Origin: an uncultured Planctomycetales bacterium
GTDB lineage: Bacteria > Omnitrophota > Gorgyraeia > Zapsychrales > Fredricksoniimonadaceae
Assembly (NCBI GenBank): GCA_964572155.1
Contig: CAZNDZ010000001.1
Location: 79,300-143,299, forward strand
Direction of reading: 5' to 3'
Length of the DNA: 64,000 nucleotides
Shown piece after piece: positions 42,876 through 64,000 of the stretch. The notes beneath the pieces were generated by a model. The model ran no database searches. It worked only from the letters and a program-made list of their open reading frames with translations, and had not been told where the DNA came from. The translations under genes and the position numbers were made by a program. Every line of letters starts with the position of its first letter. Position 1 is the first letter of the stretch.

Positions 42876-45369
42876 CTGCTCTCCTAACTGCCCAAATCAC
42901 CACGCCCATGCTCAAAAGAATGGACAATGGTATTAAAACTCTTAATGGTGAATTTGGCCAATATTTAAACAAGACTTGATGTTTCCCTGCTGATATAGGA
43001 ACGCCTAAAAAATACCCATTAACTTTAGATATCGCTGCACGTTTGCCATCAATCCACACTTGCCATTTTTCATCATAGGGATAATGCGCAATCAACCAAC
43101 CATCTGTGCTTGCTTGAAACGTAACCCCAAGCTGATCACTCGTATTACGCCAAATATTTAAAATATCCCCGCTTTGTACTAAGCGTAATGTTAACTTTAT
43201 ATTGCCCTTAAGGTATCCCTTTGGCAACCCAAGTACTAAGTATCCATCTTTGACATTATTAACATCAAAGGTAAATGACTCTGCAATGGCACCTTGAACT
43301 GGTGTAAGCAAGCTTTCTAACCCTTCTAATATAAGCCGATTACGATCTTGTGTAAATATCGCTGTTGATTCATAGCTTGGAAAACTCTTTGGTAATTTAA
43401 TGGCATATAGCACAGGATTTCCATTTTTAATCATTTGCGCTTTGCTTAATGGTATTTGAAATTCACGGACACGCGCCGGTAACATTTGACGTGGACCTTC
43501 AGGTGTACCGCTAGCTAAAACTAAAAATCGTTGGTCTTGAGCCAATGCTTGATATAACCTCTGATTATTTCCCCAATCTTGGTATATTTTTGGTCTTGGT
43601 TCATAAATATCCGCATGATCAGCAAATCGCTCTAAGGGCATATACGAAAAGAAATACCCATAATGACCTTGGAATGTATGCATATGCGGATCCGTGGCTG
43701 AAGGCAGGATGCGGAAATATTCTCGGAAAGGTAAAATTTTAGGATTCTGATAGTCGACTAACAAAGAACGCTGATCTTCAAACCCATCGTATACGCTTGG
43801 CTTAATATGTCGTCCATCTTTGATAGATAAGTATCCACCACGATTAGCAAATTCACCATGATATTGATTGTTGTCATAATATTGTTTTAATGCAAAAACA
43901 TCCACCCCCATAAAAACACAAAACAAGAATATGCCAACATGTTTGCGTGCTACTCCATTTAAGTCGATTAACTTTTTCTGGCAAACATAAACATAAAGAA
44001 TAGCTACGCTTAACATCAACAACATATACGTTTTAAACTCAAATGACAAAAACCACGCTGATAGAAAAAGTAACATCAGATAAACCGCTAAAAGCACCCT
44101 TAGCCGTATCTGACTTACACGGTCATGCAGCATGTCATAGCCCGATTGCAAACCAAATGCAACTAAAGGGAAAATTAAGTATGGCAATAACAAAACAGGC
44201 ATGTGATAGCTTCGCAATAAAAAACTAAACGGATTCGTTAAGGCATTGATCCAATGAGCGACGGACAAAAGACCCGTGTCATTGAGCGGCACATTGGTCA
44301 AGAGCACAAGTGTGCTAGCTATGGCAAAAACATATTTGGCTCGAATTTTTGAACAGATGAGGCCCATGAAAATCAACAAGACAACAGCAGCACCCCAGAA
44401 TATCCAAGATTTTTCCCAAGTTGCATTTGTAAAATCAATCAACTTTTCAGGCAACTCTGTTAATGGCAAAATTGTTTCGCCTTTTGGAGCAAAATACTTC
44501 TGTGGATTAAACATCCTGCTAAATCGACCTTGTGTGCCGTTTAAACCAGAACCTTCCACAAAGAAATCTTTTCCGAGTATATTGAAAAACATCACGCTCG
44601 GCAAAATAATGCACGCGCCTATAACAATGGTAATACCTATGGCTTTAAGATTTTTTGGTGCAACCATTCCTGTAAATGAAATGTTGCGACGATGAAAAAT
44701 GATTCCATAAATCAAAGCAACCATCATTAAGAAATGAACATTTTGATAAAAATATCCAGCACCCAACAAGGGATTCCCTGCGATGGCCACGATTAACAAT
44801 AGTACAAAACCAATAAAATCACGCGTTTGAAATTTCTCGACATAACTAATGATGAAATATGCCAAAAAAGGGAAATAACTATATAGATTGTTTGCAACAA
44901 GGCCTAAATACATCGACGACGATAAGAATGTGTTAAGTATCACTAGCGCAATGATGATCATGCCGTCATTAAGTTTAAATTTACGTAATAACACATAACC
45001 GCCAATGAGCCGCAATAAAATATTAAAGGCTGGGTGAACAAGACTAAAAATATGTTGGAATGCTTCGCCTGGGTTTGATTGAAATGGTAATAAAACAATC
45101 CCCACAAGCGCTGTTAAAATATTAGACAATGTATACAGGCCATGCCCCAAATGGTTGAACGCAAAGGTCATCCCATCATATCGGTCAAATATTTGCAATC
45201 CGCCTTGAAAGAAATTAGAAATCAGAAAAAATACGCTTTCATATGGGATCTCAGCGTCGTGGTGCCATAACATGCTTTGATTGTGAAACCAGAAAAGGTC
45301 GCTAAATATCACCATGCAAGCGCACAAGGTAAATGCAAAACTTAAAGTAATGATCTTTAATGCATTCAT
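42868..45369 (-). CDS. family-B large membrane protein (copy B3), YfhO-like
   Basis: 833 aa; NFFQGGLQIFDRYD; C-terminal PYDEKWQVWIDGKRAAISKVNGYFLGVPISAGKHQVLFKYWPNSPLRVL plus terminal TM. Confidence 0.6.
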   Translation of the reverse strand: MNALKIITLSFAFTLCACMVIFSDLFWFHNQSMLWHHDAEIPYESVFFLISNFFQGGLQIFDRYDGMTFAFNHLGHGLYTLSNILTALVGIVLLPFQSNPGEAFQHIFSLVHPAFNILLRLIGGYVLLRKFKLNDGMIIIALVILNTFLSSSMYLGLVANNLYSYFPFLAYFIISYVEKFQTRDFIGFVLLLIVAIAGNPLLGAGYFYQNVHFLMMVALIYGIIFHRRNISFTGMVAPKNLKAIGITIVIGACIILPSVMFFNILGKDFFVEGSGLNGTQGRFSRMFNPQKYFAPKGETILPLTELPEKLIDFTNATWEKSWIFWGAAVVLLIFMGLICSKIRAKYVFAIASTLVLLTNVPLNDTGLLSVAHWINALTNPFSFLLRSYHMPVLLLPYLIFPLVAFGLQSGYDMLHDRVSQIRLRVLLAVYLMLLFLSAWFLSFEFKTYMLLMLSVAILYVYVCQKKLIDLNGVARKHVGIFLFCVFMGVDVFALKQYYDNNQYHGEFANRGGYLSIKDGRHIKPSVYDGFEDQRSLLVDYQNPKILPFREYFRILPSATDPHMHTFQGHYGYFFSYMPLERFADHADIYEPRPKIYQDWGNNQRLYQALAQDQRFLVLASGTPEGPRQMLPARVREFQIPLSKAQMIKNGNPVLYAIKLPKSFPSYESTAIFTQDRNRLILEGLESLLTPVQGAIAESFTFDVNNVKDGYLVLGLPKGYLKGNIKLTLRLVQSGDILNIWRNTSDQLGVTFQASTDGWLIAHYPYDEKWQVWIDGKRAAISKVNGYFLGVPISAGKHQVLFKYWPNSPLRVLIPLSILLSMGVVIWAVRRAVG

Positions 45370-45372
45370 GAA

Positions 45373-45768
45373 TTACCTGCCTGCCAACTGAGATAATTTG
45401 ATCTTATATTGTTGGGTATTGTATTCAGACAATTGCAAGGCCATGGATAATTTCTTAACCGCGGAGGCAACATCGCCACGAGCTTCGTCTTCCAGTGCCA
45501 TATGATATAGCGCGTCGGTATTATTATTCATCGACATGGCGGTTAAAAATTGATTTTGTTTTTCCATGCTCGCCACTTGCCCCTTTAACGTGGATAACAT
45601 GGCATCCGTCTTGCGATAATCTGCCCTAAAAACAAGCACCATGGCCAAATACACCGCCACGACCACAATCACGGCTTTCACCCCAAAATCCAACCACGTT
45701 TTCATTAATGTGTTCATACATTCCCTTTCATGTGTTTGTGCCAAATCTGCAGGGTTAACAATCCCCAC
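45373..45768 (-). CDS. small single-TM protein with coiled-coil/TPR-like tail (true start possibly 45717)
   Basis: 131 aa ORF; hydrophobic helix AVIVVVAVYLAMVLVF; overlaps asnB at its 5' end unless an internal start is used. Confidence 0.3.
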   Translation of the reverse strand: MGIVNPADLAQTHERECMNTLMKTWLDFGVKAVIVVVAVYLAMVLVFRADYRKTDAMLSTLKGQVASMEKQNQFLTAMSMNNNTDALYHMALEDEARGDVASAVKKLSMALQLSEYNTQQYKIKLSQLAGR

Positions 45769-47594
45769 AAGAGCCGGCTATTATCTTTTTGTTTGCGCCA
45801 ATGTGTTTGACATAGATCGTCGACAACCGATGCATTAAATAGTTGGCCCACAACACCATCTTTTAAACTATCAGCCACATAACTTTTAAGAGGCCCGTCG
45901 ATCCAGCCAGCTATGGGCGAGGTTAGACCCTTCTTTTTACCACGGATCACCGGCTTGGGTAAATAAGCACTCGCCACATCTTTGAGGATGCGCTTGGTCT
46001 GACGCAGATTTACTTTATAGCCATACGGCAATGAACAAGCAAATTCTACGACGTGATGATCTAACATAGGAACGCGTGCCTCTAAACCATGAGCCATGGT
46101 CATGCGATCAACTTTTCGTAAATGATCATTGAGCAAATACGTATTTAAATCAACGTTCATCAACTGATTGATCCTTGATAAATTCTGGGCTTTGTCAAAA
46201 TAACGCTCTGCGACGCTAAATGGGTTATAGCCACCTAAACTGGCAAAATGATCTGTTTGCCATAAAGCACGTTGTTGTTCTAAGGAAGCCACTTGCCGCC
46301 ACGTCATATGCGCATGCTGATAATCAACGCCTATGCCTTGCATCAATTGCTTTAAACGAAAATCAAGTGAGATGCGTTTATGAGAGACGGGCATGTTCGC
46401 AATATTAGTGCTAATTAGCTTTCTGACATAGGCGGGAGTTTTTTGCCACATGGCTTGATAGTATGGCGCTTGATAGGTCGGATAACCGCCAAACAATTCA
46501 TCACCCCCATCGCCCGTTAACACCACTTTTAATTTTTGTCGTGCGGCTTTAGCTAGTAAATACGTCGGCACATAGCTGGCATTGCCCAACGGCTCATCAA
46601 ACGCTTTGATGATGGTTTCAATCAAATCTGGATTCACATCTTCCATGATGTGTATATCTAAATCAACACCACATCGTGCAGCCGTTAATTTTGCTAAGTC
46701 GGTCTCATCATAACTTTTGTCGGCAAAACCAATGCCAAAAGATTGCAATCTTCCCGATGCACTTTGTGCCGCGATGGCCGTGACCAACCCCGAATCAATG
46801 CCGCCACTTAAGAACGTTCCCAACGGCACATCCGCGCCTAGATGAGATGCCACGGCCTTTTTAAGCAAACCATCTAATTGATCTTTGGCATCATGATAGG
46901 TAATAGATTTTTCTTGATCGACGGGGATTTGCCAATAAGGCTTGATCGACATCTGCCCATTTTTAATGATGGCATAATGCGCAGGCGGCAATTGATAGAC
47001 ATTCTCAAATATTGTTTCTGGTTCGCAAATATACCAATAGCTTAAATAATCACTGATGGCTTTTAAGTTAAGCTTCAAATCAAAGAAGCCGCTTTTAACG
47101 ATAGGGGTCAATTCAGATGAAAACAGGATACGTCGAGCATCTTGCGTATAATACAACGGTTTTTGACCCATGCGATCTCGGGCCACAAACAAGGTTTTTT
47201 CTTTCGCATCCCATATGCTAAACGCAAACATCCCATTTAATTGCTTTAAGCAATCAACGCCCCACGCGATATAGGCTTGCAATAATACTTCCGTATCACT
47301 ATGCGTCTTGCAATAAAATCCCTTATCTTTAAGGATCGTCCTTAATTGTGCGTGATTATAAATCTCCCCATTGAAAACAATGGTGTATCGCCCGTCACCC
47401 GACGACAATGGCTGATGACCACCTGCTAAATCAATGATGGATAAACGCCGCTGGCCCAAGGCCACATGGCCGCTAATAAAGACACCTTCATCATCTGGGC
47501 CACGGTGTGTTAAATAATTATTTAGGGTGGAACATTGGTGCTGATCAATGCAGCTCTTAGCATCGAAACTTAGATGGGTGATGATCCCGCACAT
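45714..47594 (-). CDS. asnB: asparagine synthetase (glutamine-hydrolysing) family amidotransferase
   Basis: 626 aa; N-terminal MCGI (Cys2 nucleophile), GATase-II domain, PP-loop SGGIDS. Confidence 0.8.
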   Translation of the reverse strand: MCGIITHLSFDAKSCIDQHQCSTLNNYLTHRGPDDEGVFISGHVALGQRRLSIIDLAGGHQPLSSGDGRYTIVFNGEIYNHAQLRTILKDKGFYCKTHSDTEVLLQAYIAWGVDCLKQLNGMFAFSIWDAKEKTLFVARDRMGQKPLYYTQDARRILFSSELTPIVKSGFFDLKLNLKAISDYLSYWYICEPETIFENVYQLPPAHYAIIKNGQMSIKPYWQIPVDQEKSITYHDAKDQLDGLLKKAVASHLGADVPLGTFLSGGIDSGLVTAIAAQSASGRLQSFGIGFADKSYDETDLAKLTAARCGVDLDIHIMEDVNPDLIETIIKAFDEPLGNASYVPTYLLAKAARQKLKVVLTGDGGDELFGGYPTYQAPYYQAMWQKTPAYVRKLISTNIANMPVSHKRISLDFRLKQLMQGIGVDYQHAHMTWRQVASLEQQRALWQTDHFASLGGYNPFSVAERYFDKAQNLSRINQLMNVDLNTYLLNDHLRKVDRMTMAHGLEARVPMLDHHVVEFACSLPYGYKVNLRQTKRILKDVASAYLPKPVIRGKKKGLTSPIAGWIDGPLKSYVADSLKDGVVGQLFNASVVDDLCQTHWRKQKDNSRLLWGLLTLQIWHKHMKGNV

Positions 47595-48380: not shown

Positions 48381-49793
48381 TTATCCTTGTGATTCTTGAT
48401 GTGCTGCACTGCCATATAAGCCACCAAAATAATTGCGATAATCAAACGCTTGCTTTTGGGTTCCAAGCAACTTATCCGCCATCTCAATCGCAAAGCGGAT
48501 GGAATGATCAGAATTGTTATACCAAAACGCACCGCTGCGGCCTAATAAATGAATGCGTTTAGAATAGTTCATAATCCCTGCCTTCACACGTCCAAAATCT
48601 TGTGCATAGCGACGATGATAAATCGGATATGTATCGAGGACAGGCTCAACATGCACCGCATCGACATATTTTCTATTCTTAATAAATCGCATGCCAACCA
48701 ATTCATCTAAAACACCATCTTTATGTTCTTGTGGGTTCTTAAAATAAAATGGCTCTTTTTGTGAATCGGTTAATTCACAAATCATGTTGTAATAACCTTC
48801 TTTACACGTGTATGGCAAAAATTCTTTCATGCAGGTGATGCGGCTGATCAAACTATCCCCACGGCTCACATAAATCCATTGTGCTTTTTGTTTGCCCACA
48901 CCCTCGTCTTTACAGATGACATTATAAAAAATTGTATTTAAATAATGCACCGACGTATTCTGAGGCGCAATGAGACTGCTTAGGGCATTTAAATTCCCCG
49001 TCCACAAAAGCTCGGTAAATGTAAAATCTTTGCCCTTTTGGGTTTTAACCTCAAATGTTTTGCCATTATCATTAATCTTTGAGATTGTATCAGACAACAC
49101 CAAATGAAATCCTTTCATCCCTTGGCATAAACCCAACATTTGCTCATAAAAACCACCAAAACCACCCTCCAACGGATATAAGAATTCTGTCTCTATCTTG
49201 GCGGGCAAGAGCAATGACTTAAACAAATCCATCAATGAGTTGGCATTAACCCGCTTATCAATGACCGTACGATTAATCCCCGTCGATGCCCAGTCAGAAT
49301 GAATATCCTCAGTATCCCAACGCAAGAATTTCTGTGTATATGGTTTAAAGAAAATACCATAAAGTGTTTCGCCATATTTTGAATTGATATATTGATGAAA
49401 GGAGGTCTTATCTGTAATCGGTCGTTCTTTTAAAAGATCCAAGGCACATTTGACCGATACATTAAGCGGCATCTTGATTAAGTCTTTGGTTTGCAGCGGC
49501 CATTCAAAATATTGATTTAAGAAGAATACCTTGGTCGATCGACCAATGGTTGCAATATGCCCTTGTGTGATCTCTTGGATAAAATCTAAAACAATGGGGT
49601 CATCGGTGTGAAAACGTTTTGGCCCTGTATCAAAAATATGTCCATCGTATTCATAACTTTTAGCCAAGCCACCGACACGGTCATCGCGTTCTATTAATAA
49701 AACGCTCTTACCCCCTTTGAGCAATTTATATGCCGCGGTTAAACCGCTAGGGCCGCTACCAACAACGCAATAATCATAATGTGTTTTATTCAT
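48381..49793 (-). CDS. FAD-dependent oxidoreductase, UDP-galactopyranose mutase (GLF)-like
   Basis: 470 aa; YCVVGSGPSGLTAAY FAD fold; GPKRFHTDD and IFFKPYTQKFLRWDTEDIHSDW parallel Glf motifs GPHIFHT and FFKGYTxKQWG. Confidence 0.45.
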   Translation of the reverse strand: MNKTHYDYCVVGSGPSGLTAAYKLLKGGKSVLLIERDDRVGGLAKSYEYDGHIFDTGPKRFHTDDPIVLDFIQEITQGHIATIGRSTKVFFLNQYFEWPLQTKDLIKMPLNVSVKCALDLLKERPITDKTSFHQYINSKYGETLYGIFFKPYTQKFLRWDTEDIHSDWASTGINRTVIDKRVNANSLMDLFKSLLLPAKIETEFLYPLEGGFGGFYEQMLGLCQGMKGFHLVLSDTISKINDNGKTFEVKTQKGKDFTFTELLWTGNLNALSSLIAPQNTSVHYLNTIFYNVICKDEGVGKQKAQWIYVSRGDSLISRITCMKEFLPYTCKEGYYNMICELTDSQKEPFYFKNPQEHKDGVLDELVGMRFIKNRKYVDAVHVEPVLDTYPIYHRRYAQDFGRVKAGIMNYSKRIHLLGRSGAFWYNNSDHSIRFAIEMADKLLGTQKQAFDYRNYFGGLYGSAAHQESQG

Positions 49794-53068: not shown

Positions 53069-54931
53069 TCAAGGATTTTTGCGCTTTAAAGCAATCAGAT
53101 ACTTACCCTCTGCAACAGGCTCATAGTGCTGATGAAAGTATGATATTAGGATCATAAGCGTCTGAAAATGCTCATAATAGGGCGCGGGCAATCCGGAATA
53201 AAGTTTTTTCTCAACAAAGGCATACTCTAAGCGGGTTTGGTCTAATTCAGCCAACGTATGCTGCATCCGCTCCTTGGTCCAAAGCACGCTACCTCTAAAT
53301 TGCAGCACATCTAATTGATCGGTATAAATCACAGCAAAGAAGTAAAAGAAAGGCTTACGCTTAGCCTCCATTAGGATCTTAACTTCGCGACCTGAAACCA
53401 AAATCACCCGTTCTTCTGGTTTGGTCAGCTGTTGAATCAAGGCAATGTCTTGGGATATGTCAGGTTCTGCAGGCACCACATTGTTCTTTTTAGCAGCAAA
53501 ATTCCAAATGCCTGGGTAATCCCGCACCAAAGGATTTAAAACCAAGAGCAGACAAACACCAACCGCAACACTGGCCCACGCGATGCGTGACATTAACACA
53601 GATAGTCGCCCTATACCCAACGCGATCACATAGATGATAATGGCAACCAAAGGCAAACAAACCGCAGCATAGCTCGTCGGCGCTGAACGCACCACATAAT
53701 AGTGATACAACCCTAAACCATACACCGATAACACGCAAATAAAAATATGTTCCCAATCCAATTTCTTTAAGAAGCATGAAGTCGCAAAAAATATTAGCGC
53801 AAGCACATAAAGGATTGGTACGGCTAAGCTAAGAGCAAATGCAATATATTGATGCGCGTCTAAGGAATAAGTCATGGGCAAGGCGCCAAAACCTGATAAA
53901 AATAATCCTGCAAATTCAAAGGTGTTATACCAAAACGCCTTTTGAAAAATCGCTGGGCCTTGGATGATCCACAGGATCAAAAAAGCTACTAGAAATGGCA
54001 ACGCTAATACAGCCGCCATCAAACCAGACGCATTCAACCACTGTTTGCGTTGTTGATATACATAAAACACCCCATATGTTGCGAGTGATAACCACAAATA
54101 AACACCTGCATCCAACGTCCAAACCAAGGCAAGCCCAACGCCCACGGACGCCAACCACAGATAAATGCTCTTGCCTGTTCGTAAATGCGCTAATAGCGCA
54201 AGTAAAATGGGAATGTCCCACCAAAATCGAATAACGGTGGCACTAGGAAATTGCCAGACGAGCGGAAAAACACCTGGATGAAACATTTGAACACTGATGC
54301 CTGCAAAAACGCCGATCAAAGCCGCGATGCGTAAATGCATCCAAATACGTAAGAACAGATAAAACATGCAAAAATAAATAGCCCCCAAGGACATTTCAAA
54401 TGACAGGATGCCAAGATAATTAAAATGCTTGAGCGCATTTAATATATTGGCTGCAATGACAGGAATTAAAATGCTGTATTCGCTAATCTGATCAACATTG
54501 AGTTTTAAACCACCAATGACAGCCAAGCCTGGGGATGTGAAAAAACTATCGACGTGAAAACACCTATCCGTGATGCGCGCAAATACCGCTTGAGATGATG
54601 GGACAAAAATAAAAAAGAAGACAATAAAACACACAACCGCATCAATGACATTAAAACGAATATCTTTTTTAGGCGAAGCTTGATTAACCCCGTGTGAAAA
54701 ATGGGGTTTAAATATAAAAAACCCTATCACTTGAGCAATGATGCCTGCGACAACAAAAATGCGGAAGAATAAAACCTCACGTTCAGGCTTAAAATCACTG
54801 AGCCATTCCCCAAAAACACCGACGGATAAATCTAAAGCAATGGGATGAAAACTAAAATACCAAATCGCAAGCCCCGTGACAAGGGACGCCACCGTGACGC
54901 TACATAACGACAACAGGATGATTGGAAGCAT
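53069..54931 (-). CDS. family-A large polytopic membrane protein (copy A6)
   Basis: 620 aa; FKPEREVLFFR, DRCFHVDSFF...QISEYS, MFHPGVFPLVWQFPSAT, YPGIWNFAAKKNNVVP, VILVSGREVKILMEAKRKPFFYFFA, YAFVEKKL, YEPVAEGKYLIALKRK. Confidence 0.7.
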   Translation of the reverse strand: MLPIILLSLCSVTVASLVTGLAIWYFSFHPIALDLSVGVFGEWLSDFKPEREVLFFRIFVVAGIIAQVIGFFIFKPHFSHGVNQASPKKDIRFNVIDAVVCFIVFFFIFVPSSQAVFARITDRCFHVDSFFTSPGLAVIGGLKLNVDQISEYSILIPVIAANILNALKHFNYLGILSFEMSLGAIYFCMFYLFLRIWMHLRIAALIGVFAGISVQMFHPGVFPLVWQFPSATVIRFWWDIPILLALLAHLRTGKSIYLWLASVGVGLALVWTLDAGVYLWLSLATYGVFYVYQQRKQWLNASGLMAAVLALPFLVAFLILWIIQGPAIFQKAFWYNTFEFAGLFLSGFGALPMTYSLDAHQYIAFALSLAVPILYVLALIFFATSCFLKKLDWEHIFICVLSVYGLGLYHYYVVRSAPTSYAAVCLPLVAIIIYVIALGIGRLSVLMSRIAWASVAVGVCLLLVLNPLVRDYPGIWNFAAKKNNVVPAEPDISQDIALIQQLTKPEERVILVSGREVKILMEAKRKPFFYFFAVIYTDQLDVLQFRGSVLWTKERMQHTLAELDQTRLEYAFVEKKLYSGLPAPYYEHFQTLMILISYFHQHYEPVAEGKYLIALKRKNP

Positions 54932-55710
54932 TAATATAATCCGAAGAAATGTTTGCTTTGACTGCCATCAATACCAACATTATCACCGAAGAAATACCCC
55001 GCCTTCTGTGAACACAGGAAAGCAACAACACTGCTAACCTCGTCGGGAGTTCCAAAACGACCGAGCGGCAGGCGCTCATCAATATAACGTTTCACATGAT
55101 CGGGTTTGGCCAACAATGTCCGATCCCAATAACTACCTTTGGCAATGATCGCGCCTGGCATGATGGCGGAAACAACAATGCCATCCGTCGCTAATTCACG
55201 GCCAATCTGCGCGGAATATTCTGCCAAGGCGGCTTTTGGTACACAATACGTTACAGGCCCACTATTTTCCATCGCTGCGGTTGATGCAATATGCACAATA
55301 CGCCCCCACCCCTGATGTTTCATATAAGGGACGCACAATTCATTAAACTCAACCGCAATTTCAAAGTTAATGCGAAATGCCCGACGCCAGTCTTTGATGG
55401 AACAATAATGATCCGTGATCCCTAAGGTGTCGCCGATATTGTTAACAATGATATCTGGATTACCAAATTTTTTTATGGCAGCTTTGATGGCTTTGGCGGG
55501 TCCGCCTTTTTTAGTTAAGTCACAGGCAATGGACGCATGCCCCTTATCGGCGCCGCCCATTTCTTTAAACACCTCTTGGATGCTCACCAACGACCTGCCA
55601 ATGACCAAGACATGCGCATTTTCTTGGGCCATACGCAAGGCAATGGCACGACCTATGCCTCTTGTTCCGCCGGTGACTAAAACTTTTTTATTGGCTAACC
55701 CTAAGTCCAT
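54931..55710 (-). CDS. SDR-family oxidoreductase (start chosen at MDLGLANKKVLVTGG)
   Basis: VLVTGGTRGIGRAIA, catalytic Y..K; ORF extends to 55791 but would overlap the upstream SDR. Confidence 0.7.
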   Translation of the reverse strand: MDLGLANKKVLVTGGTRGIGRAIALRMAQENAHVLVIGRSLVSIQEVFKEMGGADKGHASIACDLTKKGGPAKAIKAAIKKFGNPDIIVNNIGDTLGITDHYCSIKDWRRAFRINFEIAVEFNELCVPYMKHQGWGRIVHIASTAAMENSGPVTYCVPKAALAEYSAQIGRELATDGIVVSAIMPGAIIAKGSYWDRTLLAKPDHVKRYIDERLPLGRFGTPDEVSSVVAFLCSQKAGYFFGDNVGIDGSQSKHFFGLY

Positions 55711-55721
55711 GATGAAAAATA

Positions 55722-56513
55722 TCAGGATCTTTCTACGTTGTAATAATGACGCGCTTGACCGCCGTCGATAGGAATAATGGCGCCTTGGCAATACGTTGCT
55801 AAACTAGAGCACAGCATGGCAACCATGGGGCTTATTTCCTCTGGTTTTCCAAAACGACCCGAAGGTGAATTTTGTCGGAGAAATTCTTTGGCATCATTAG
55901 GCTTGGTTTTAGACACCTTTTGCCAATAACCATCCTCCATGAGCATGGCCCCTGGCAAAACAGCCGACATAACGACATTACTCGCCTCAATCGCCAAAAT
56001 TCTTCCCATGCATCGTGTGTATGCCGTTAAGGCCGCCTTGCTTGCGCAATACGATACCGTCGCTGAATGTTCCATCGATGCACCGGAAGAAAGATTGATG
56101 ATGCGCCCCCAATTGCGTTGTTTCATCTGTGGGATAAATAAATTATTGATCTCAATGGCAATTTCTAAGTTATTGCGAAATATCTTTCGCCATCCATCAA
56201 TCGTTGTATGTAATTTTCCTGTATATGCATAGGTGTCTAGGCAATTGACGATGATATCAACATGCCCAAATGATTTCTTAACATTGTTAAAGAGCTTCTT
56301 GGCATTGCCCTCACGCACCAAATCAATAGCGAATGCTGCATGACCCAATTTACTACCGCCTAAGGCATGTAGGATGCGATTCATTTTAGGAGCATCATCA
56401 GAAACTACTGCAACGATAACACCTTCGTGGGCTAATTCAAGGGCAATGGCTTTGGCTAAACCATGATGCGCACCGACGATCAATGCTCTTTTTTGCTGAA
56501 TATCTAAATTCAT
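55722..56513 (-). CDS. SDR-family oxidoreductase
   Basis: 263 aa; ALIVGAHHGLAKAIA, YCASK catalytic motif. Confidence 0.7.
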   Translation of the reverse strand: MNLDIQQKRALIVGAHHGLAKAIALELAHEGVIVAVVSDDAPKMNRILHALGGSKLGHAAFAIDLVREGNAKKLFNNVKKSFGHVDIIVNCLDTYAYTGKLHTTIDGWRKIFRNNLEIAIEINNLFIPQMKQRNWGRIINLSSGASMEHSATVSYCASKAALTAYTRCMGRILAIEASNVVMSAVLPGAMLMEDGYWQKVSKTKPNDAKEFLRQNSPSGRFGKPEEISPMVAMLCSSLATYCQGAIIPIDGGQARHYYNVERS

Positions 56514-57380
56514 CTACGCCTTTCTGCCTTGCAAATGTGTCCATTTCTCTTTTGGGACACAAAAAATATTTGTGGTGATCTTTTGATTCTTATAAACATC
56601 TAACTCTTTACTTTTATCAAATGGATAAAACGTATCCGTCGCATGTTCATAGGTCAAAAAGCAATAGTCCAACTTTTCAAAATAATCCGTCAAGCGTTCC
56701 ATCAGGTTAGGATTGTGTTCTATCAAGATTGCAGGACGGGAAGATTTTATTGTTTTAACCAACCCTAAAAGTACTTCATCATCAAAACCTTCCGTATCAA
56801 TCTTAATGATATCTGGCTTTAAATTCAACTCATCAATCGGCAAAATATCAACCTTGTACTCCACAATCACAATGCTTTTATCTTTATCGTCGGGTAAATG
56901 CTGTTCGATCATCGTGGTTTGAACATAATCTTTGCGCAATGACGCGGCGGTATAGATGGGCACGCTGTTATAGATTGGTATATAGAGCGTCATCTGAGAT
57001 CTTTCACGTCCAGCGCCAATCAACTTATAGTCAAAACGCGGCAATCGCTTCTTTAACTTGCGTAGCGAACGCTCATGACACAAGTTTGGCTCAAGGGACA
57101 AAATGCGGTAATCGCTATGAATATGACGAAAACCAATGGCCGATATCCCATCATTCGCGCCAATATCCAAAAACAACCCATCCCCGGGATGCACCAAATG
57201 CATAAAGCCATAATAACTTTTATCATGAGGCAATAAGAACGGGATGTACTGAAAAAGGCGACGGCCAATAAAACCCGTATAAGGGTTATAGCGCAACAAA
57301 CGCGGGATCGCTGAATTGATCCGCCATAGGCGGATGATTTGTCGACGAAACTGACGGAACAATATTCTTAAACGGATCAT
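56514..57380 (-). CDS. FkbM-family methyltransferase
   Basis: LFLDIGANDGISAIGF (Methyltransf_21 motif); start MIRLRILF forms an ATGA overlap with the upstream gene stop; ORF extends to 57455. Confidence 0.6.
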   Translation of the reverse strand: MIRLRILFRQFRRQIIRLWRINSAIPRLLRYNPYTGFIGRRLFQYIPFLLPHDKSYYGFMHLVHPGDGLFLDIGANDGISAIGFRHIHSDYRILSLEPNLCHERSLRKLKKRLPRFDYKLIGAGRERSQMTLYIPIYNSVPIYTAASLRKDYVQTTMIEQHLPDDKDKSIVIVEYKVDILPIDELNLKPDIIKIDTEGFDDEVLLGLVKTIKSSRPAILIEHNPNLMERLTDYFEKLDYCFLTYEHATDTFYPFDKSKELDVYKNQKITTNIFCVPKEKWTHLQGRKA

Positions 57381-59062
57381 GTTTTTCCTATAAGTTCTCG
57401 GATCGTTAGAGCATCTGGATAAGGGTAAAGTTTTTGTAAATCCCACGTATAACAATATTCTTTGATCTTGTCTAAACCAGAACGTTCAAGGAATTCTAAA
57501 CACGGCTGATTTTTTTCTGTCTTCACATAATCCGCAACCAACAACCTCGATGTGGATTTTGCCAACACCACGGCTTTGGCCATCATAGCATCTTCTACAA
57601 AACGACCAAATACGCGGCAACTTAAAATAAAATCTTCAAGATACGCCGTATCAGGCCCAACGGATAAACCAATCATACCTGTCAATCCAGAATCACCTAA
57701 ATCATCTGACACCCGAAAAACAAACACATGACGGCCGGACATATTTGCCCACTGCCAATATTCTTGTTCTGTCATCCGTCGGGTTTTTAAATTCATCTGA
57801 TTGGTCTTATTGAGTAGTTGCACAGCCCTTGATAAATTCGACGAATCTAATGGCTCAATCGTTAAAACCATATGCAATGAAGTCAACCAATCTTTGACAG
57901 ACATGGCAGGTTGTTTTAAATCTTGACGTTTTTGTTCAGCCACATACATATCCGTGCGTTGCTTATCTTCCGTTGTTACAGCGACCATATCAAAATATGG
58001 CATGGCAGCTAAGGTTTGAGCATACAAATAATGTTCTGTTGGCCACGTCGGGACAGTGATATCAGCAATCGATGTTTTAATCCGATCTCGCTCAGCGGGA
58101 TGATCATCAATATAAACAGCCGCTGACGCAGGCAAATTTAATTCATTTAGAATATCAACGATGTTTTGGGCTTTATCCGACCAGTTAATGCGCCAAGCCG
58201 CAAAATCTTCTTTTCTTAGAATCATTTCTGGATGCGTGGTAATGGCATCCAATGCCGTGCTTTCATCGTTCTTACTAACAATGGCCAAAACAATGCCGCG
58301 TTGTCTTAAGATTTTAAGCTGACGTTGAAAATCAACAAAGGCTTCACCCGTTGCGTCATGCCCTCCAAGTTTAATATTGTTTTTGCCAAGATCGCCGAGC
58401 TCTCCACCCCAAAGCGTATTATCTAAATCAAGGATGATCAATTTTTTGGTTTGTCCGTAAAAAACGCCCAGTGTTTGTTTAATATCAATCGCCGCTGTTT
58501 TTAACACTTCCATGTCATATGGCAATTTGCTCACGTACCATAATTTTGGATTTACCGCTTTAGGACCTATGGCATGCAACCAATGATTAGGGTCTTTAAA
58601 GATCACATTTGGTGTATGTGTCAACGCATCAATCAACAACCCATTGGCCCTATGTAACCAGCGACGGACACCGTTTTGACTATAGTCCAACGGGCCTGTC
58701 CCACGATAATGATGTGGCAAGGCAAATAAACAAACAATCACATGTTTGACGCTTGCGGCCTTTTCTCTAATGTGACTCGCCAACGTTAGAACTTCTTGTT
58801 CGATCGACGACGGATTAACATCTTGAAAATTCATGAGCTTGGCTAAGGATGGCAAAATGCTCCACGGTTGGCACCATATCACCGCAAAATCTGAAGCATC
58901 ATCCCATGCAGGATGTTTTGGATTTGATAATGTTTGATATACCTGCCCAAATGGTAATGTTTTAATGGAACATGCAGGAGCCATGGCGAGGTTGTTCAAA
59001 TATCCAACCATGACATCACAATTAAAATCCGAAATGATTACACCTTTTAAACGCTCTTGCAT
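57377..59062 (-). CDS. FkbH-like / HAD-superfamily subfamily IIIC domain protein
   Basis: 561 aa; LIILDLDNTLWGGELGD HAD motif I, VSKNDE motif; N-terminal region as in FkbH-type proteins. Confidence 0.65.
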   Translation of the reverse strand: MQERLKGVIISDFNCDVMVGYLNNLAMAPACSIKTLPFGQVYQTLSNPKHPAWDDASDFAVIWCQPWSILPSLAKLMNFQDVNPSSIEQEVLTLASHIREKAASVKHVIVCLFALPHHYRGTGPLDYSQNGVRRWLHRANGLLIDALTHTPNVIFKDPNHWLHAIGPKAVNPKLWYVSKLPYDMEVLKTAAIDIKQTLGVFYGQTKKLIILDLDNTLWGGELGDLGKNNIKLGGHDATGEAFVDFQRQLKILRQRGIVLAIVSKNDESTALDAITTHPEMILRKEDFAAWRINWSDKAQNIVDILNELNLPASAAVYIDDHPAERDRIKTSIADITVPTWPTEHYLYAQTLAAMPYFDMVAVTTEDKQRTDMYVAEQKRQDLKQPAMSVKDWLTSLHMVLTIEPLDSSNLSRAVQLLNKTNQMNLKTRRMTEQEYWQWANMSGRHVFVFRVSDDLGDSGLTGMIGLSVGPDTAYLEDFILSCRVFGRFVEDAMMAKAVVLAKSTSRLLVADYVKTEKNQPCLEFLERSGLDKIKEYCYTWDLQKLYPYPDALTIRELIGKT

Positions 59063-60237
59063 TATTTATGCTCGACTTGACCCCAAAGGGCTTTAAACAT
59101 CCTATTAATTGGCTCTGGTCGCAGATGGCCAAAATCCACAAAATCTCTATCACTTAAACCCACATCTGTTGGGTTATATGACCCAAAAACTTTAATGCCC
59201 TTATCTTTAGCAAAATTACGCATCCATTGTTCTGAAATCTTAACCATTGGATATTGATCCGTTTGATACATGCGCTCAAAACTTGCCGTATAATACGGAG
59301 GAATATAAAAATATATTTCAACGCCTTTTTTCTGCAAAACGTCGATCATCTTAACAAAAAATGTTTGTAACATAGGATCAATGGCATAAAAATCTTCCAC
59401 ATTAGACATTCTACCATCGATGGCGCGCTTTTTCTCTGTCTCATCAACCTCTGCTATCGTCTTACCAAAAGCTTCGGGGATCACAATGCCAGAACCATCA
59501 GGACTTAAAAGCATGCCAAAGCCTTCTTTAACGCTATTATAATTCCATGTCAGCTTTGGTTCTTTTAATACTTCATATTCATTATAATCCCAAGGTGCTT
59601 GGCCCTTTCTCCATATAGAGAAGTTATACGTTGCAATCTCTGGATTAAATAGATTTGACGCACGCTCCCAAGGTATGTCTTTTAATACATCCTTGATTTT
59701 ATCGGTGAATGTCAGCGGCTTGCCTTCAAAAACGGAATTGATCATGTAATCATGATAAAATGCCAACTTCTGCCATTCATTGCGCGTTGAATCATCTGGC
59801 GCAACATTTAATAACCAAGGTTCTATGGTAAAAATCATACGTTTTGGAAAGCTAAGCTTATGGTACGCATAAACACCCACTAAACCTAAATAATCATGAA
59901 CGGAAGCGCCTCCAACCCATAGGTTTAGAAATGTTCCTTGTTCTTTGAAAACGTCTTTATTGAGATTTAAAATGCGGCTACTGCCTAAAATCACGGTATC
60001 GGCCACGGGATTGGCCTTGATCATGGCTTGTTTAAGATATCGATCCGCCCAATGTTGGGGACCTAAAATATACTCGCCTTTTTGCAAATGCCAGACAAAT
60101 TGGTCATAAATGCCTTTGGGTACAAACACATTAGCATAGTCAAAGCGTAAATTGAACCATGCCAGACTGCCCATGATGACAAAAAAAGACACAATGAGGC
60201 TGACCCCAAGAATCTTAATAGATCGTTTTTCAACCAT
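59062..60237 (-). CDS. DltD-like membrane-anchored SGNH-type protein (MBOAT partner)
   Basis: 391 aa; N-terminal TM anchor; VILGSSRI (DltD-like Ser motif) and C-terminal DFVDFGHL (D-x-x-H). Confidence 0.5.
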   Translation of the reverse strand: MVEKRSIKILGVSLIVSFFVIMGSLAWFNLRFDYANVFVPKGIYDQFVWHLQKGEYILGPQHWADRYLKQAMIKANPVADTVILGSSRILNLNKDVFKEQGTFLNLWVGGASVHDYLGLVGVYAYHKLSFPKRMIFTIEPWLLNVAPDDSTRNEWQKLAFYHDYMINSVFEGKPLTFTDKIKDVLKDIPWERASNLFNPEIATYNFSIWRKGQAPWDYNEYEVLKEPKLTWNYNSVKEGFGMLLSPDGSGIVIPEAFGKTIAEVDETEKKRAIDGRMSNVEDFYAIDPMLQTFFVKMIDVLQKKGVEIYFYIPPYYTASFERMYQTDQYPMVKISEQWMRNFAKDKGIKVFGSYNPTDVGLSDRDFVDFGHLRPEPINRMFKALWGQVEHK

Positions 60238-60262
60238 ATAATTTTTTGATATACTATATCAC

Positions 60263-61702
60263 ATGTTGTTTAATTCATTCCAGTTTCTTGTTTTTTTTAT
60301 CCTTGTTTTCGGCGTCTACCTGTTATGCACCCACCGTTGGCAGAATCGGCTCTTGCTTGTAGCTAGCTGTATCTTTTACGCATCATGGAACTGGAAATTC
60401 CTTTTTCTCATGGTCTTATCTATAAGCAATAACTACATTTGCTGCTGGTTCATGGGTCGCACTGAACAACCAAAAATACGCAAGTTTCTGCTCATTATTA
60501 GCCTTGTTATTAGCGTTGCCATCCTTGGCGTTTTCAAATATTACAATTTCTTTGCTGAAAATGTCACCGCATTAGTCAATGTGTTTGCTACCAGAGAATA
60601 TGTGCCGGTTTTTCTAAATATAGCCCTGCCTTTGGGGATTTCTTTCTATACATTTGAAGCCATGAGTTATTCGATTGACGTCTACCGCCGCACCGTTAAA
60701 CCCGCTGGCACCTATTGGGATTACCTTTTATTCGTCATGTATTTCCCTCATTTGATTGCTGGTCCTATCATGAGATTTGGAAAATTTGTGCCACAAATCC
60801 TCAAAGAACGCGAAATCACGTGGCCCAAAATTCACGATGGGCTGTATCTAACTTTCCTCGGACTATTTCAAAAAATGTTTGTAGCGGATAATCTTGCCAA
60901 AATTGTCAATCCCGTCTTTGGTCAAAGTACTAACGCTAATGGCGTTGACATCCTAATTGCCATGTATGCGTTTGCCTTGCAAATCTTTAGTGATTTTGCT
61001 GGATATAGCAATATCGCCCGTGGATTAGGGATGATGATGGGATTTGACATCGCTGTCAACTTCAATACCCCATTCTTTTCAACCAATGTTCAAGAATTCT
61101 GGAACAGATGGCATGTTAGCTTAGGACATTGGGTGCGTGATTACATCTATATGCCCCTTTTGGGTGGCCTTAAGATCGTCAAGGGCAATGGCCGCATTTA
61201 CTTGGCTTTGATTATTTCCATGACCTTGGTGGGTTTCTGGCACGGAGCACAATGGAATTTCGTTATCTTTGGTATCTACTATGGGATTTTGTTATCCCTT
61301 TATATCAAATTTATCAAAATGAAGTACGCAAATTTAATTCTACCCAAAAGCGCTTGGGGTAAAGTCTTATGGTTTTGGACCCGTGTTATTTTTATCTTCC
61401 ATGTTACAATACTTGCGACAACGATTTTCCGCTGTCAAACCATCCCACAAGCCAAACATATCTTTGCTGGCCTAATAGGAAATTTTCATCTTGCATCCAT
61501 GCAACCTTCGCTATTTTACAAATTGATTGGATTTGGGGCGCCCTTGATGATCTTGCAATGGATGGAATACCACACCAATAACATTTTCTTCCTCTTTAAA
61601 TATAAAAAACCAATTACATATAGTATCTTAGCATTAATGTTGTGGATGCTAATATCGTGGGGATCCGTGCGTCACGAAGGATTTATTTACTTCATCTTCT
61701 AA
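60263..61702 (+). CDS. MBOAT-family membrane-bound O-acyltransferase (DltB/AlgI-like)
   Basis: 479 aa; at least 10 TM; conserved His regions EFWNRWHVSLGHWVRDY and FWHGAQWNF. Confidence 0.8.
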   Translation: MLFNSFQFLVFFILVFGVYLLCTHRWQNRLLLVASCIFYASWNWKFLFLMVLSISNNYICCWFMGRTEQPKIRKFLLIISLVISVAILGVFKYYNFFAENVTALVNVFATREYVPVFLNIALPLGISFYTFEAMSYSIDVYRRTVKPAGTYWDYLLFVMYFPHLIAGPIMRFGKFVPQILKEREITWPKIHDGLYLTFLGLFQKMFVADNLAKIVNPVFGQSTNANGVDILIAMYAFALQIFSDFAGYSNIARGLGMMMGFDIAVNFNTPFFSTNVQEFWNRWHVSLGHWVRDYIYMPLLGGLKIVKGNGRIYLALIISMTLVGFWHGAQWNFVIFGIYYGILLSLYIKFIKMKYANLILPKSAWGKVLWFWTRVIFIFHVTILATTIFRCQTIPQAKHIFAGLIGNFHLASMQPSLFYKLIGFGAPLMILQWMEYHTNNIFFLFKYKKPITYSILALMLWMLISWGSVRHEGFIYFIF

Positions 61703-61704
61703 TT

Positions 61705-63228
61705 ATGTGGAATAAACATTTAAAAGTTGATACAGCCTCTATTGATGCCTTCGCAAAACTCAGCGGTGACTACAATAGCCTGCACATGAATGACGAACAG
61801 GCGAGAACCTATTCTTACCGTCAACGCGTGGCACATGGCATGTTGGGTGTCGGTCTTCTAATTCATTGCCCCTTACTTCACAATCGTTCGATCAAGAAAA
61901 TTGCTGGGCGTTTTAACCGTCCTATTTTTATTAATGACGACATCACCTTGCAGGTGACACCAGCGAGTAATGATCTTTTGCAATTCTCGATCGATGCCCC
62001 ATCGCAATCACAGCCGATCATGTCAGGGCAATTAACCCTTGGCAATCCATGCCCTCAAACCACAACTGTTGATTCACGCGCCTTGATCGATATCAAGCTC
62101 ACGGAGAACACCTATACAATCGACGCATTATCCAGCGGCCTAAAAGAAAGCTTTCCTTTCACATTATCATCAAAACTTTCTACGCTTGCAAATAATGCGC
62201 AAGTTCCTTTAGAAATAATCCCTGTGCTTTTATCTTCCACCATGGTCGGCATGCGCCTGCCTGGGAAATTAGCTACCTATATAGATTTTAGTTTTGAATT
62301 CTTAAAAGAATTTCAACATGGTGCATCCTGTCAGATGGAAGCCACCGTTAATTTTGTTTCCTTGTCCGCCGGTGTGATGATTGTAACAGTGGATGTTTTA
62401 TGTGAATCAACAAAAATTGCGCAAGGCAAACTCACGGTTAAGGTACAAGAACCAAGCAAACCTCTGCCCTCTTTTAACACCATTAAATCATCCGATGGGT
62501 CCAGTGAATTAGCAAATAAAGTCGCGCTCATCACTGGTTCAAGCCGTGGCATTGGCGCAACCACCGCTCGATTATTGGCTGCTAAAGGAGCCCATGTTAT
62601 TGTGAATTTCCATTCAAGTCATACCTTGGCAAAAGCGGTTGTCGACGACATTATCGACAATGGCGGCAAAGCGTTTGCCATCCAAGCGGATGTGAGTAGC
62701 CCTTGCCAAGTCACAGCCATGTTTGAGAAAATTGCGCAAACATGCGGTGGGATTGATATCTTAATTAACAATGCCGTATCCGACGCATTGCCTCAACCAT
62801 TTCAAACATTATCTTGGGAAGATCTTCAGAAAGATATTGATGTGACCGTCAAAGGGGCTTTTTTATGCAGCAAAATTGCCGTCGATCAGATGATCCGACG
62901 TGGTGGTGGGCATATTGTTAATGTCAGCACTGCCTATACCCAAGAACCGCCACCGAGCATGACCAAATATGTTGTTTCCAAAAGTGGATTGGTTGGTTTA
63001 AGCAAAAGTATGGCTGTTGAACTCAAAGCTAAAAATATATGCGTCAATATGGTTGAACCAAGCTTAGTTGAAACAGATTTATCAAAAGCTATCCCGCCGA
63101 TCATTAAAGAGAAAATGCGCAAAGAACAACCCAACGGAAAATTCCCCTCAACGCTGGACGTGGCCAAAGCCATTGCCTCATTGGTGTGCCAAAACGCTCC
63201 AACAGGACAGACCGTCGCTGTTAAATGA
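61705..63228 (+). CDS. fusion: MaoC-like (hot-dog) dehydratase domain(s) plus C-terminal SDR (FabG-like reductase)
   Basis: N-terminal FAKLSGDYNSLHMNDEQAR...HGML (MaoC motif); C-terminal VALITGSSRGIGATTA, YVVSKSG; start set at MWNKHL just after the MBOAT stop. Confidence 0.65.
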   Translation: MWNKHLKVDTASIDAFAKLSGDYNSLHMNDEQARTYSYRQRVAHGMLGVGLLIHCPLLHNRSIKKIAGRFNRPIFINDDITLQVTPASNDLLQFSIDAPSQSQPIMSGQLTLGNPCPQTTTVDSRALIDIKLTENTYTIDALSSGLKESFPFTLSSKLSTLANNAQVPLEIIPVLLSSTMVGMRLPGKLATYIDFSFEFLKEFQHGASCQMEATVNFVSLSAGVMIVTVDVLCESTKIAQGKLTVKVQEPSKPLPSFNTIKSSDGSSELANKVALITGSSRGIGATTARLLAAKGAHVIVNFHSSHTLAKAVVDDIIDNGGKAFAIQADVSSPCQVTAMFEKIAQTCGGIDILINNAVSDALPQPFQTLSWEDLQKDIDVTVKGAFLCSKIAVDQMIRRGGGHIVNVSTAYTQEPPPSMTKYVVSKSGLVGLSKSMAVELKAKNICVNMVEPSLVETDLSKAIPPIIKEKMRKEQPNGKFPSTLDVAKAIASLVCQNAPTGQTVAVK

Positions 63229-63981
63229 TTATTTGCTTAAGATGCAGGCATAATTAATAGCTTCATCACGCATGCCTTTGGTATGATCTTTGAATGATGC
63301 GGGTAAGATTAATTCTGAATGAATCTTAAAATATTTACTTAACATGTCGGTTACTTCTTCAGCTGTATTAAACAAATAAATATGATCGACATTAGCTGCA
63401 AAGATGGCTGTTGTTAAGAATAATACGCCATCATCTTTGAGCATTGCTTTTAGTTTCACCAACAATTCTTCAGGTTTTTCCAAGTGTTCCAAAAGTTCGC
63501 CGCAGACAATCAAATCGTACACCGGTGTATTTGGCAAATCAAAAACATTGCTTGTTGAAATATTCATCTTCGAGGACAAACGTTGGCTCGATGTTAAAAA
63601 TCGTTTAGAAAAATCAACGGCAATTCCGCTAATATCAAAAGCATCAAGGCGATCAAATTTTAAATGTTCCTGCATATGATATACAAATATCCCATCGCCG
63701 ATTGGAACATCCATCACCCGCGACGCCTTGCCAAGTTTCTTAATAAAATCTAAAAAGTACGTGCCAAACTTATAATGATTAGGCCAAAAGATTTGCGTAT
63801 ACAATAACCCATGCATATAGGAAGGCATGATATCTTTATTAAGGTATACCTTGTCCAAGACATCTGAAAAAGATGAGCTGGCATATGAACCTGTTTTGAT
63901 GAGTTGATTTTGTAAGACAAGATACTCTAATGATAACTTGATAAAGCTATCTAAACCTGCCGTTGATTCCTTGCCATCCAT
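63229..63981 (-). CDS. class I SAM-dependent methyltransferase
   Basis: 250 aa; DISGIAVDF, DLIVCGELLEHLEKPEELL. Confidence 0.55.
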   Translation of the reverse strand: MDGKESTAGLDSFIKLSLEYLVLQNQLIKTGSYASSSFSDVLDKVYLNKDIMPSYMHGLLYTQIFWPNHYKFGTYFLDFIKKLGKASRVMDVPIGDGIFVYHMQEHLKFDRLDAFDISGIAVDFSKRFLTSSQRLSSKMNISTSNVFDLPNTPVYDLIVCGELLEHLEKPEELLVKLKAMLKDDGVLFLTTAIFAANVDHIYLFNTAEEVTDMLSKYFKIHSELILPASFKDHTKGMRDEAINYACILSK

Positions 63982-64000
63982 TTTCTGAATGTCAGTAATC

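Follow-up and report, generated by a model that had tools for sequence, protein, structure and literature searches.

Which acyl group is exported by a polymer-acylating relay whose genes are interleaved with those of an FkbH-family loading enzyme and a dehydratase/reductase fusion, and on what donor is it delivered? The question is raised by the distal end of a 64,000-nucleotide stretch of DNA (hereafter the window; contig CAZNDZ010000001.1 of assembly GCA_964572155.1, positions 79,300 to 143,299) from an uncultured bacterium assigned to Omnitrophota. Relays that pair a membrane-bound O-acyltransferase (MBOAT) with an SGNH protein are a general bacterial route for acylating polymers outside the cytoplasm, and in the current view Dlt alone uses a carrier protein, whereas other MBOAT-SGNH systems use acyl-coenzyme A (acyl-CoA) (PMC12148441). 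We propose, with moderate confidence, that the module in the window is an MBOAT-SGNH relay fed by a carrier protein, and that it forms esters between a glycan outside the cytoplasm and a C3 hydroxy-acyl group, for which lactyl is the most likely identity. The proposal builds on domain identities, catalytic motifs, the predicted fold of the SGNH protein, the probable identity of the carrier and a recurrent gene linkage; the evidence is comparative throughout.

The module consists of two divergent gene pairs. On the minus strand, the gene for a DltD-like/DUF1574-like SGNH protein of 391 residues with an N-terminal membrane anchor (59062..60237) precedes that for an FkbH-family enzyme of 561 residues, composed of a HAD phosphatase core and a C-terminal cysteine domain (57377..59062). 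On the plus strand, the gene for an MBOAT of 479 residues (60263..61702) is followed by that for a 507-residue fusion of a MaoC hot-dog dehydratase and a FabG-type short-chain dehydrogenase/reductase (SDR) (61705..63228). An initial annotation, made from the sequence alone, had assigned these four open reading frames (ORFs) and their identities, with which both the domain profiles and the SGNH fold agree; its 25-bp spacer between the divergent MBOAT and SGNH genes also stands, at 60238-60262 by the longest ORFs, the starts of which are supported by the alignment of both N-termini with homologues. The longest ORF of the fusion opens with GTG at 61642, but the ATG at 61705 is the more likely start; a gene caller picked the 507-residue start on an identical contig. 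This public contig, termed L001, is 100% identical to the window across 11,791 overlapping nucleotides and extends ~5 kb past the window end. The stop of the SGNH gene overlaps the FkbH start by 1 nt, and the ATG of the MaoC/SDR gene sits 3 nt past the MBOAT stop, so that the genes for acyl transfer are interleaved with those for acyl carrier protein (ACP)-bound acyl synthesis.

The FkbH-family enzyme matches TIGR01686 with 270.9 bits (cut-off 146.65) and the HAD-IIIC model TIGR01681 with 65.3 bits, which confirms the full-length FkbH domain expected at 57377-59062. It possesses the motifs DLDNTLWGG at 212, SKN at 263, DDHPAER at 319 and SCR at 481. Alignment with 19 homologues revealed that D212/D214, S263-K264-N265, D319 and C482 are invariant. 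The score over the curated cut-off, the HAD DxD motif and the conserved C-terminal cysteine place the protein in the TIGR01686 family, of which more than 6400 homologues are ~45% identical across the full length. Among solved structures, it matches BF1531 (PDB 3SLR) with an E-value of 2e-35. FkbH domains are known to load ACPs (PMC4552970). In addition, two FkbH homologues, P0209 (799 residues) and P0229 (727 residues), bear a hexapeptide-repeat (PF00132) acyltransferase domain, which suggests that, in other systems, a cytoplasmic LbH acyltransferase takes the place of the MBOAT as recipient of the same acyl-ACP supply.

The initial annotation had found neither a carrier protein nor a DltA-like ligase within the window. 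Our searches agree: ACP profiles gave no match among the 332 window ORFs of at least 40 residues, and AMP-binding/DltA profiles gave none among ORFs of at least 150 residues from 21435 to 64000 and in the 5-kb extension. The carrier gene lies just beyond, where the annotation had proposed to look for it: on L001, a plus-strand gene 205 nt past the window end (window-equivalent 64205-64504) encodes a protein of 99 residues that contains YGSTDSLVLTMLIVAIEQ, with Ser46 in the motif GSTDSL. Homologues of this family were found in 26 loci retrieved with FkbH; their invariant serine, corresponding to S46, sits in an LDSL, (L/T)DSL motif. In 24 other loci the family is encoded directly upstream of FkbH, nearly always ending at the FkbH start codon. 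Searching the PDB with the family profile yielded 33 matches, all of them ACP, DltC or peptidyl carrier protein chains (best E-value 0.003), whose attachment serine lines up with the invariant one of the family. Moreover, hhalign relates the profile with 90% probability to a second family of small FkbH-adjacent proteins with a WDSL motif, which itself matches solved ACPs at an E-value of 2e-23. We conclude from these sequence relationships that the 99-residue protein is probably a divergent carrier protein, the dedicated nearby partner that an FkbH-family enzyme is expected to have. A related contig (L084) has the same gene order, and its carrier is 83% identical to that of L001. In both contigs, a gene for a class I S-adenosylmethionine-dependent methyltransferase (63229..64000, minus strand; Methyltransf_23/12), which has 305 residues in full and is cut by the window end, sits between the MaoC/SDR and carrier genes.

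The MaoC/SDR fusion bears on the identity of the acyl group. It matches the Pfam families MaoC_dehydratas (42.3 bits) and adh_short (163.8 bits), and the catalytic motifs of both halves are intact, namely the hydratase-2 motif GDYNSLH in the former and TGSSRGIG, NNA and YVVSK in the latter. Full-length homologues of the fusion are encoded directly 3' of FkbH in six other loci (L004, L005, L007, L025, L030 and L032), with E-values from 1e-75 to 1e-121. Among the 79 loci with a callable FkbH ORF that were drawn from species-representative genomes, 20 have a MaoC hot-dog gene within 4 kb of FkbH, which is fused to an SDR in seven. In the biosynthesis of FR901464 and lankacidin, bifunctional dehydratase-ketoreductase (DH-KR) proteins convert glyceryl-S-ACP to lactyl-S-ACP (PMC4765723).

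The MBOAT matches the Pfam family MBOAT with 76.3 bits and the DltB equivalog TIGR04091 with 176.2 bits, well below the cut-off of 375. It also matches the solved DltB structures 8JEM and 6BUG with an E-value of 1e-34, the alignment ending at residue 379. Its motifs comprise WNRWH with the catalytic His284, WHG at 326 and FIYFIF at 474-479 with Tyr476. DltB receives D-alanine from its carrier, DltC, and hands it on to the tyrosine of an FxYxxF motif in the microprotein DltX, whereas other bacterial MBOATs that acylate polymers, PatA and AlgI among them, have their own C-terminal FxYxxF on two extra helices (PMC12148441). The window MBOAT has ~90 C-terminal residues beyond DltB that close with an exact FxYxxF (...GFIYFIF), a motif common to most FkbH-linked MBOATs. 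As judged from its sequence, the protein has the PatA/AlgI-type architecture with a fused shuttle, not that of the DltB type, yet it stands in a carrier-protein context. Of the DltB-like assignment in the initial annotation, the MBOAT identity and the likeness to DltB structures remain, and the DltB type is replaced.

The SGNH protein was the least certain of the four assignments. By sequence, it has a sub-threshold match to DUF1574 only (23.5 bits against a cut-off of 29.1) and none to Pfam DltD (PF04914); a word-indexed search of 5.8 billion proteins recovered only the protein itself, and profile and single-sequence searches of PDB sequences yielded no match. An exhaustive HMMER search gave 1736 relatives. 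In an alignment of 83 family sequences, G85, S87, N105, G352, D368 and H371 are invariant, in a pattern of the SGNH type (GSS ... DxxH); 38 of the 83 match DUF1574, and a few weakly match DltD (four sequences) or GDSL lipases. The AlphaFold2 model built from this alignment has a pLDDT of 90.8, compared to 38 for the single-sequence model. Foldseek comparison of the model with the PDB revealed that the 12 best matches are all DltD (E-values from 3e-5 to 6e-4), followed by SGNH esterases. The protein has a transmembrane-like segment at residues 4-32, and its relatives elsewhere directly follow MBOAT genes. At the level of the predicted fold, the DltD-like SGNH assignment of 59062-60237 holds. 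The MBOAT catalytic histidine and C-terminal FxYxxF, in addition to an adjacent anchored SGNH partner with a Ser/Asp/His triad, give the pair the features of a PatAB-type system. Elsewhere, on contig L003 (179-7956), a DltD-like relative and an MBOAT end a nonulosonic-acid gene set (Epimerase_2, NeuB, CTP_transf_3, Polysacc_synt_2 and DegT); this contig has neither ACP nor FkbH and exemplifies the generic, carrier-less pair.

The linkage of these genes recurs in other genomes. An ACP gene lies beside FkbH in 53 of the 79 loci and an MBOAT gene in 22. The MBOAT gene is nearly always adjacent or in the same operon, often in the order FkbH-ACP-MBOAT and then a gene for a partner of 330-480 residues. 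These 22 loci are distributed among Alphaproteobacteria (Bradyrhizobium, Sphingomonas, Novosphingobium and Reyranella), Betaproteobacteria (Massilia), Acidobacteriota, Desulfovibrio, Clostridia, a cyanobacterium, Omnitrophota and a Micrarchaeota genome. The clearest case is the Omnitrophota locus L004, in which ACP, FkbH, MaoC/SDR, MBOAT and an SGNH-like protein are encoded as a single operon; the genes on either side are unrelated housekeeping genes, and no glycosyltransferase is encoded within ~10 kb. Its MBOAT is 50% identical to that of the window. The SGNH-like partner is not matched by the DltD-like profile in hhalign, which indicates that the two partners belong to different SGNH families. 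In Sphingomonas rustica, the cassette lies beside Wzy-like and GT4 genes.

Based on homology and gene context, from which every mechanistic step is drawn, we propose the following course of acyl transfer. By the known function of its family, FkbH would dephosphorylate 1,3-bisphosphoglycerate, hold the glyceryl group on Cys482 and load it onto the phosphopantetheine at Ser46 of the carrier. If the fusion works like the DH-KR proteins of the FR901464 and lankacidin pathways, its MaoC domain would then strip the 3-hydroxyl of glyceryl-ACP to give the enol of pyruvoyl-ACP, and its SDR domain would reduce the 2-keto group to yield lactyl-ACP. As PatA and DltX suggest, the MBOAT would use His284 to move the acyl group from the carrier pantetheine across the membrane to its own Tyr476 in FIYFIF at the outer face. 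There, the anchored SGNH protein (Ser87, Asp368 and His371) would take the acyl group and, as the final acyltransferase, esterify a hydroxyl of the glycan, which is presumably the product of the GT2 proteins, YfhO-like proteins and orphan polytopic membrane proteins encoded alongside in the ~45-kb locus. The initial annotation had suggested the transfer of a glyceryl or hydroxyacyl group to a glycan by a Dlt-like relay, an idea that gains support from the carrier, the SGNH fold, the full FkbH domain and the recurring L004 operon. A non-amino-acid hydroxyacyl cargo is retained, and lactyl is now likelier than glyceryl owing to the MaoC/SDR fusion; in cassettes without the fusion, such as those of sphingomonads, the cargo would be glyceryl. 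It is gene context that connects the MBOAT with the carrier in this proposal.

Several observations weigh against a carrier-fed relay. The carrier alone scores 14.8 bits against PP-binding (PF00550; cut-off 20.8), and its gene lies ~5 kb from FkbH, split from the MBOAT operon by the methyltransferase gene on the opposite strand. The TM-scores of the SGNH model to DltD are modest (~0.4). The model leaves unaccounted for the FkbM-family methyltransferase of the FkbH operon (56514..57380, minus strand; 288 residues from the gene-caller start; Methyltransf_21 40.5 bits, TIGR01444 58.3 bits), the gene of which overlaps the FkbH stop by 4 nt, and the two FabG-like SDRs encoded in tandem further downstream (55722-56513 and 54931-55710 by the gene calls on L001, minus strand; adh_short/adh_short_C2). 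Of the 33 loci whose FkbH proteins are most closely related to that of the window, L004 alone encodes an MBOAT, and the neighbours of FkbH in the others vary. Conversely, a metagenome scan seeded with the MBOAT gave 80 loci with relatives of 35-45% identity, none of which has FkbH, ACP or MaoC/SDR nearby; the MBOAT gene is followed by the same DltD-like family in 14 and by one partner cluster in 24. In the distance analysis, the MBOATs of the window and L004 are mutual nearest neighbours, yet they lie beside generic MBOATs. The window pair falls in a large, apparently carrier-less class that presumably depends on acetyl-CoA, and with such relatives, a carrier-borne donor does not follow from the sequence of the MBOAT by itself. 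Moreover, the fused-shuttle architecture is typical of acyl-CoA users and is tied to such donors in the literature (PMC12148441).

These observations would largely suit two independent systems in one glycan locus, in which the MBOAT and its DltD-like partner form an acetyl-CoA-dependent O-acetyltransferase pair of the PatA/PatB or AlgI/AlgJ type, and the acyl-ACP made by FkbH, the carrier and MaoC/SDR serves another cytoplasmic step, such as one in which an unrecognised enzyme N- or O-acylates a sugar precursor. The fusion of some FkbH homologues to hexapeptide acyltransferases fits this arrangement, a credible rival that we nevertheless consider less likely in the window: the SGNH-FkbH and MBOAT-MaoC/SDR pairs are interleaved and translationally coupled, the five-gene operon of L004 stands by itself, the ~10 kb around it being free of further transferase and glycan genes, and the FkbH-linked MBOATs occur in many phyla with a recurring gene order. 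In the window and its 5-kb extension, no further acyltransferase was recognised, and the neighbour families of FkbH loci without an MBOAT, two of which gave no match in PDB searches, have no homologue there. In addition, the acyl group is borne on an identical phosphopantetheine arm in CoA and in holo-ACP, so that a switch of donor may need little change and would not have to leave a strong sequence signature. Less probable still is the same relay with another cargo, namely glyceryl or an O-methylated or oxidised derivative, with MaoC/SDR, the FkbM methyltransferase and the SDRs tailoring something else, or the acyl group in a different manner. Glycerate esters are known on gellan (PMC4432689, PMC4443731), neither MaoC nor SDR is matched in 14 of the 22 FkbH-MBOAT loci, among them the loci of Sphingomonas rustica and Novosphingobium album, and the FkbM methyltransferase, directly downstream of FkbH with the two SDRs, could methylate either the acyl group or a sugar. 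Against such a cargo stands the fusion itself, which has intact catalytic motifs, starts immediately past the MBOAT stop and follows FkbH directly in six other loci; for a dehydratase and a ketoreductase acting on glyceryl-ACP, lactyl-ACP is the documented product (PMC4765723). The target may also not be a glycan at all, since the L004 cassette lies outside any glycan locus and FkbH is best known from polyketide pathways; the acyl group would then go to a lipoprotein, to a lipid of the membrane or to a small molecule that is secreted, or the module would belong to a small thiotemplated natural-product pathway. Members of the MBOAT superfamily also acylate lipids and proteins. However, neither the window nor L004 contains a ketosynthase, condensation or thioesterase gene, the SGNH/DltD-like partner is membrane-anchored like those of polymer-acylating pairs, the window module is embedded in a ~45-kb locus with GT2, YfhO-like and methyltransferase genes, and the Sphingomonas rustica cassette adjoins glycan genes, all of which make a non-glycan target very improbable.

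Beyond the window, the carrier-fed relay that we favour may represent a wider pathway. We tentatively propose, giving it slightly less than an even chance, a second carrier-fed MBOAT-SGNH pathway independent of Dlt, loaded by FkbH instead of a ligase, that attaches lactate or glycerate by ester bonds to glycans outside the cytoplasm. It would be distributed in Omnitrophota, Alphaproteobacteria, Betaproteobacteria, Acidobacteriota, Clostridia, Cyanobacteria and a Micrarchaeota genome, and would include both fused-shuttle (PatA-like) and short (DltB-like) MBOATs. Its sphingomonad form, consisting of ACP, FkbH, MBOAT and partner with a putative VOC-family epimerase, would be a candidate for the enzymes that add L-glycerate to gellan-type sphingans.

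Two further observations concern these FkbH-linked loci. Five of the MBOATs are short (390-444 residues) and have no C-terminal FxYxxF, which is the DltB-like architecture (L047 12831-14045, L049 4626-5828, L054 707-1879, L073 12831-14042 and L076 11722-13056); they might use a separate DltX-like microprotein. Small proteins of the VOC/glyoxalase family, similar to methylmalonyl-CoA epimerase, adjoin FkbH/ACP in ~10 loci (L081 15349-15753; also L010, L012, L015, L041, L042, L044, L055, L061 and L068), and in Sphingomonas rustica a VOC-family gene directly follows the MBOAT partner gene. Speculatively, these proteins could turn D-glyceryl-ACP into its L epimer, an activity consistent with the L-glycerate found on gellan. 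Next to the carrier gene of L001, a conserved membrane microprotein of 77 residues is encoded at 4324-4557 (plus strand of L001; window-equivalent ~64506-64739, minus strand) and likewise in L084 at 4562-4795. Its gene abuts the carrier gene and overlaps the stop of a YfhO-like gene. We considered it as a DltX-like protein and rejected it, as it contains an internal IVYNGF and no C-terminal FxYxxF motif.

The first 21 kb of the window carry housekeeping genes (FolC, PurH, Era and PabB), and the module belongs to the ~45-kb locus that surrounds it. This locus encodes GT2 proteins, three YfhO-like proteins, seven orphan polytopic paralogues, methyltransferases, oxidoreductases and an AsnB-like amidotransferase. 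The seven polytopic membrane proteins have 8-14 transmembrane-like segments each (22533-24656, 24649-25890, 25883-27649, 28098-30488, 34460-36679, 39212-41224 and 53069-54931, all on the minus strand) and are interleaved with the YfhO-like paralogues (31863-34460, 36642-39215 and 42868-45369). Their pairwise E-values mostly range from 1e-45 to 1e-113, and the short copy at 24649-25890 matches three others only (1e-7 to 1e-17). They belong to no Pfam family and have no relative among solved structures; one of the seven is part of the FkbH operon. The set appears to form an orphan family, the members of which are candidate GT-C-like glycosyltransferases or polymerases. The long glycan operon on the minus strand also includes genes for an AsnB-type glutamine amidotransferase (45714-47594), an amine-oxidase-like flavoprotein (48381-49793) and a GMC oxidoreductase (41221-42552), which hint at amidated or oxidised sugars in the target polymer.

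As for expression signals, no obvious Shine-Dalgarno sequence precedes the divergent SGNH and MBOAT start codons in 60215-60262. A promoter-like TTAATA-16-TATAAT at 60215-60242 lies within the start of the SGNH coding sequence, 20 nt upstream of the MBOAT ATG, and a leader from this site would be very short. In this region, promoter-like and terminator sites do not exceed the frequency of shuffled sequence, and scans for Rfam families and tRNA genes gave no matches.

If the proposal is true, a widespread branch fed by FkbH and ACP would make the MBOAT-SGNH relay a modular acyl exporter, the cargo of which is set by interchangeable cytoplasmic loaders. It would also define a new class of surface modification, in which uncharged lactyl or glyceryl esters are isosteric with D-alanyl esters and likely affect recognition by phages, antibodies and antimicrobial peptides. 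Glycerate and lactate substituents occur on exopolysaccharides, such as L-glycerate on gellan (PMC4432689, PMC4443731), for which a review of 2015 lists one verified acetyltransferase only. In the open-access literature, we found no report of the genes responsible for such esters, for which the present cassettes would be a genetic candidate. Nor did we find, in open-access full texts, a report linking FkbH or HAD-IIIC with MBOAT, AlgI or DltB, or a description of this system under FkbH with polysaccharide or gellan acyltransferase. Related cassettes in the cultured Bradyrhizobium sp. Pha-3, Massilia sp. 9I, Sphingomonas rustica HF-S3 and Novosphingobium album make the proposal directly testable.

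Compared to known systems, the cytoplasmic half of the module resembles polyketide starter synthesis. As in the FR901464 and lankacidin pathways, FkbH and its own ACP are found together with a dehydratase and a ketoreductase. The proposed likeness is one of function, taken from the literature, and the window has a free-standing MaoC hot-dog/FabG-type SDR fusion instead of DH and KR of the polyketide synthase type. Moreover, neither a ketosynthase nor a polyketide synthase follows, and the proposed consumer is the MBOAT. FkbH/FkbJ of methoxymalonyl-ACP synthesis is a further system of this kind. As for surface glycans, FkbH-domain proteins are encoded in the loci of Campylobacter jejuni cj1302, which belongs to the flagellar glycosylation locus, and Bacteroides fragilis BF1531 (PDB 3SLR); for both, we found neither a functional characterisation nor a link to MBOAT in the open-access literature.

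The membrane half resembles the O-acetyltransferase pairs PatA/PatB, AlgI/AlgJ/AlgX and WssH/WssI, with which it shares the MBOAT histidine, the MBOAT's own FxYxxF and the Ser-Asp-His triad of the SGNH protein; the nearest relatives of its MBOAT are generic pairs with the same partner family. However, these pairs use acetyl-CoA and no carrier (PMC12148441), whereas the window pair is interleaved with FkbH and MaoC/SDR and has a carrier gene nearby. As a whole, the proposed module is similar to the Dlt system of Gram-positive cell walls (DltA, DltC, DltB, DltX and DltD), which D-alanylates teichoic acids by passing the acyl group from a carrier thioester through the MBOAT, the FxYxxF tyrosine and an anchored SGNH protein to an extracytoplasmic polymer (PMC12148441). 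The window MBOAT matches DltB structures, and the best structural matches of its partner are DltD. In addition, lactyl is the hydroxy analogue of the alanyl group of Dlt, and the product would be an uncharged mimic of the D-alanyl ester. The two differ in the loader, which is FkbH instead of the adenylating ligase DltA, in the carrier, which is not DltC-like in sequence, and in the SGNH protein, which is DUF1574-like and outside the Pfam DltD family. They differ as well in the MBOAT, which in the window bears its own shuttle, compared to the ~400-residue DltB that uses the microprotein DltX, and in the lack of charge on the proposed acyl group. With no DltA, an MBOAT under the DltB cut-off and the shuttle motif fused to the MBOAT, we rejected the label of a Dlt operon. 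Altogether, the comparison suggests that the module works like the Dlt pathway, and that it adds a loader and a carrier to a PatAB-type pair, a class said to lack them.

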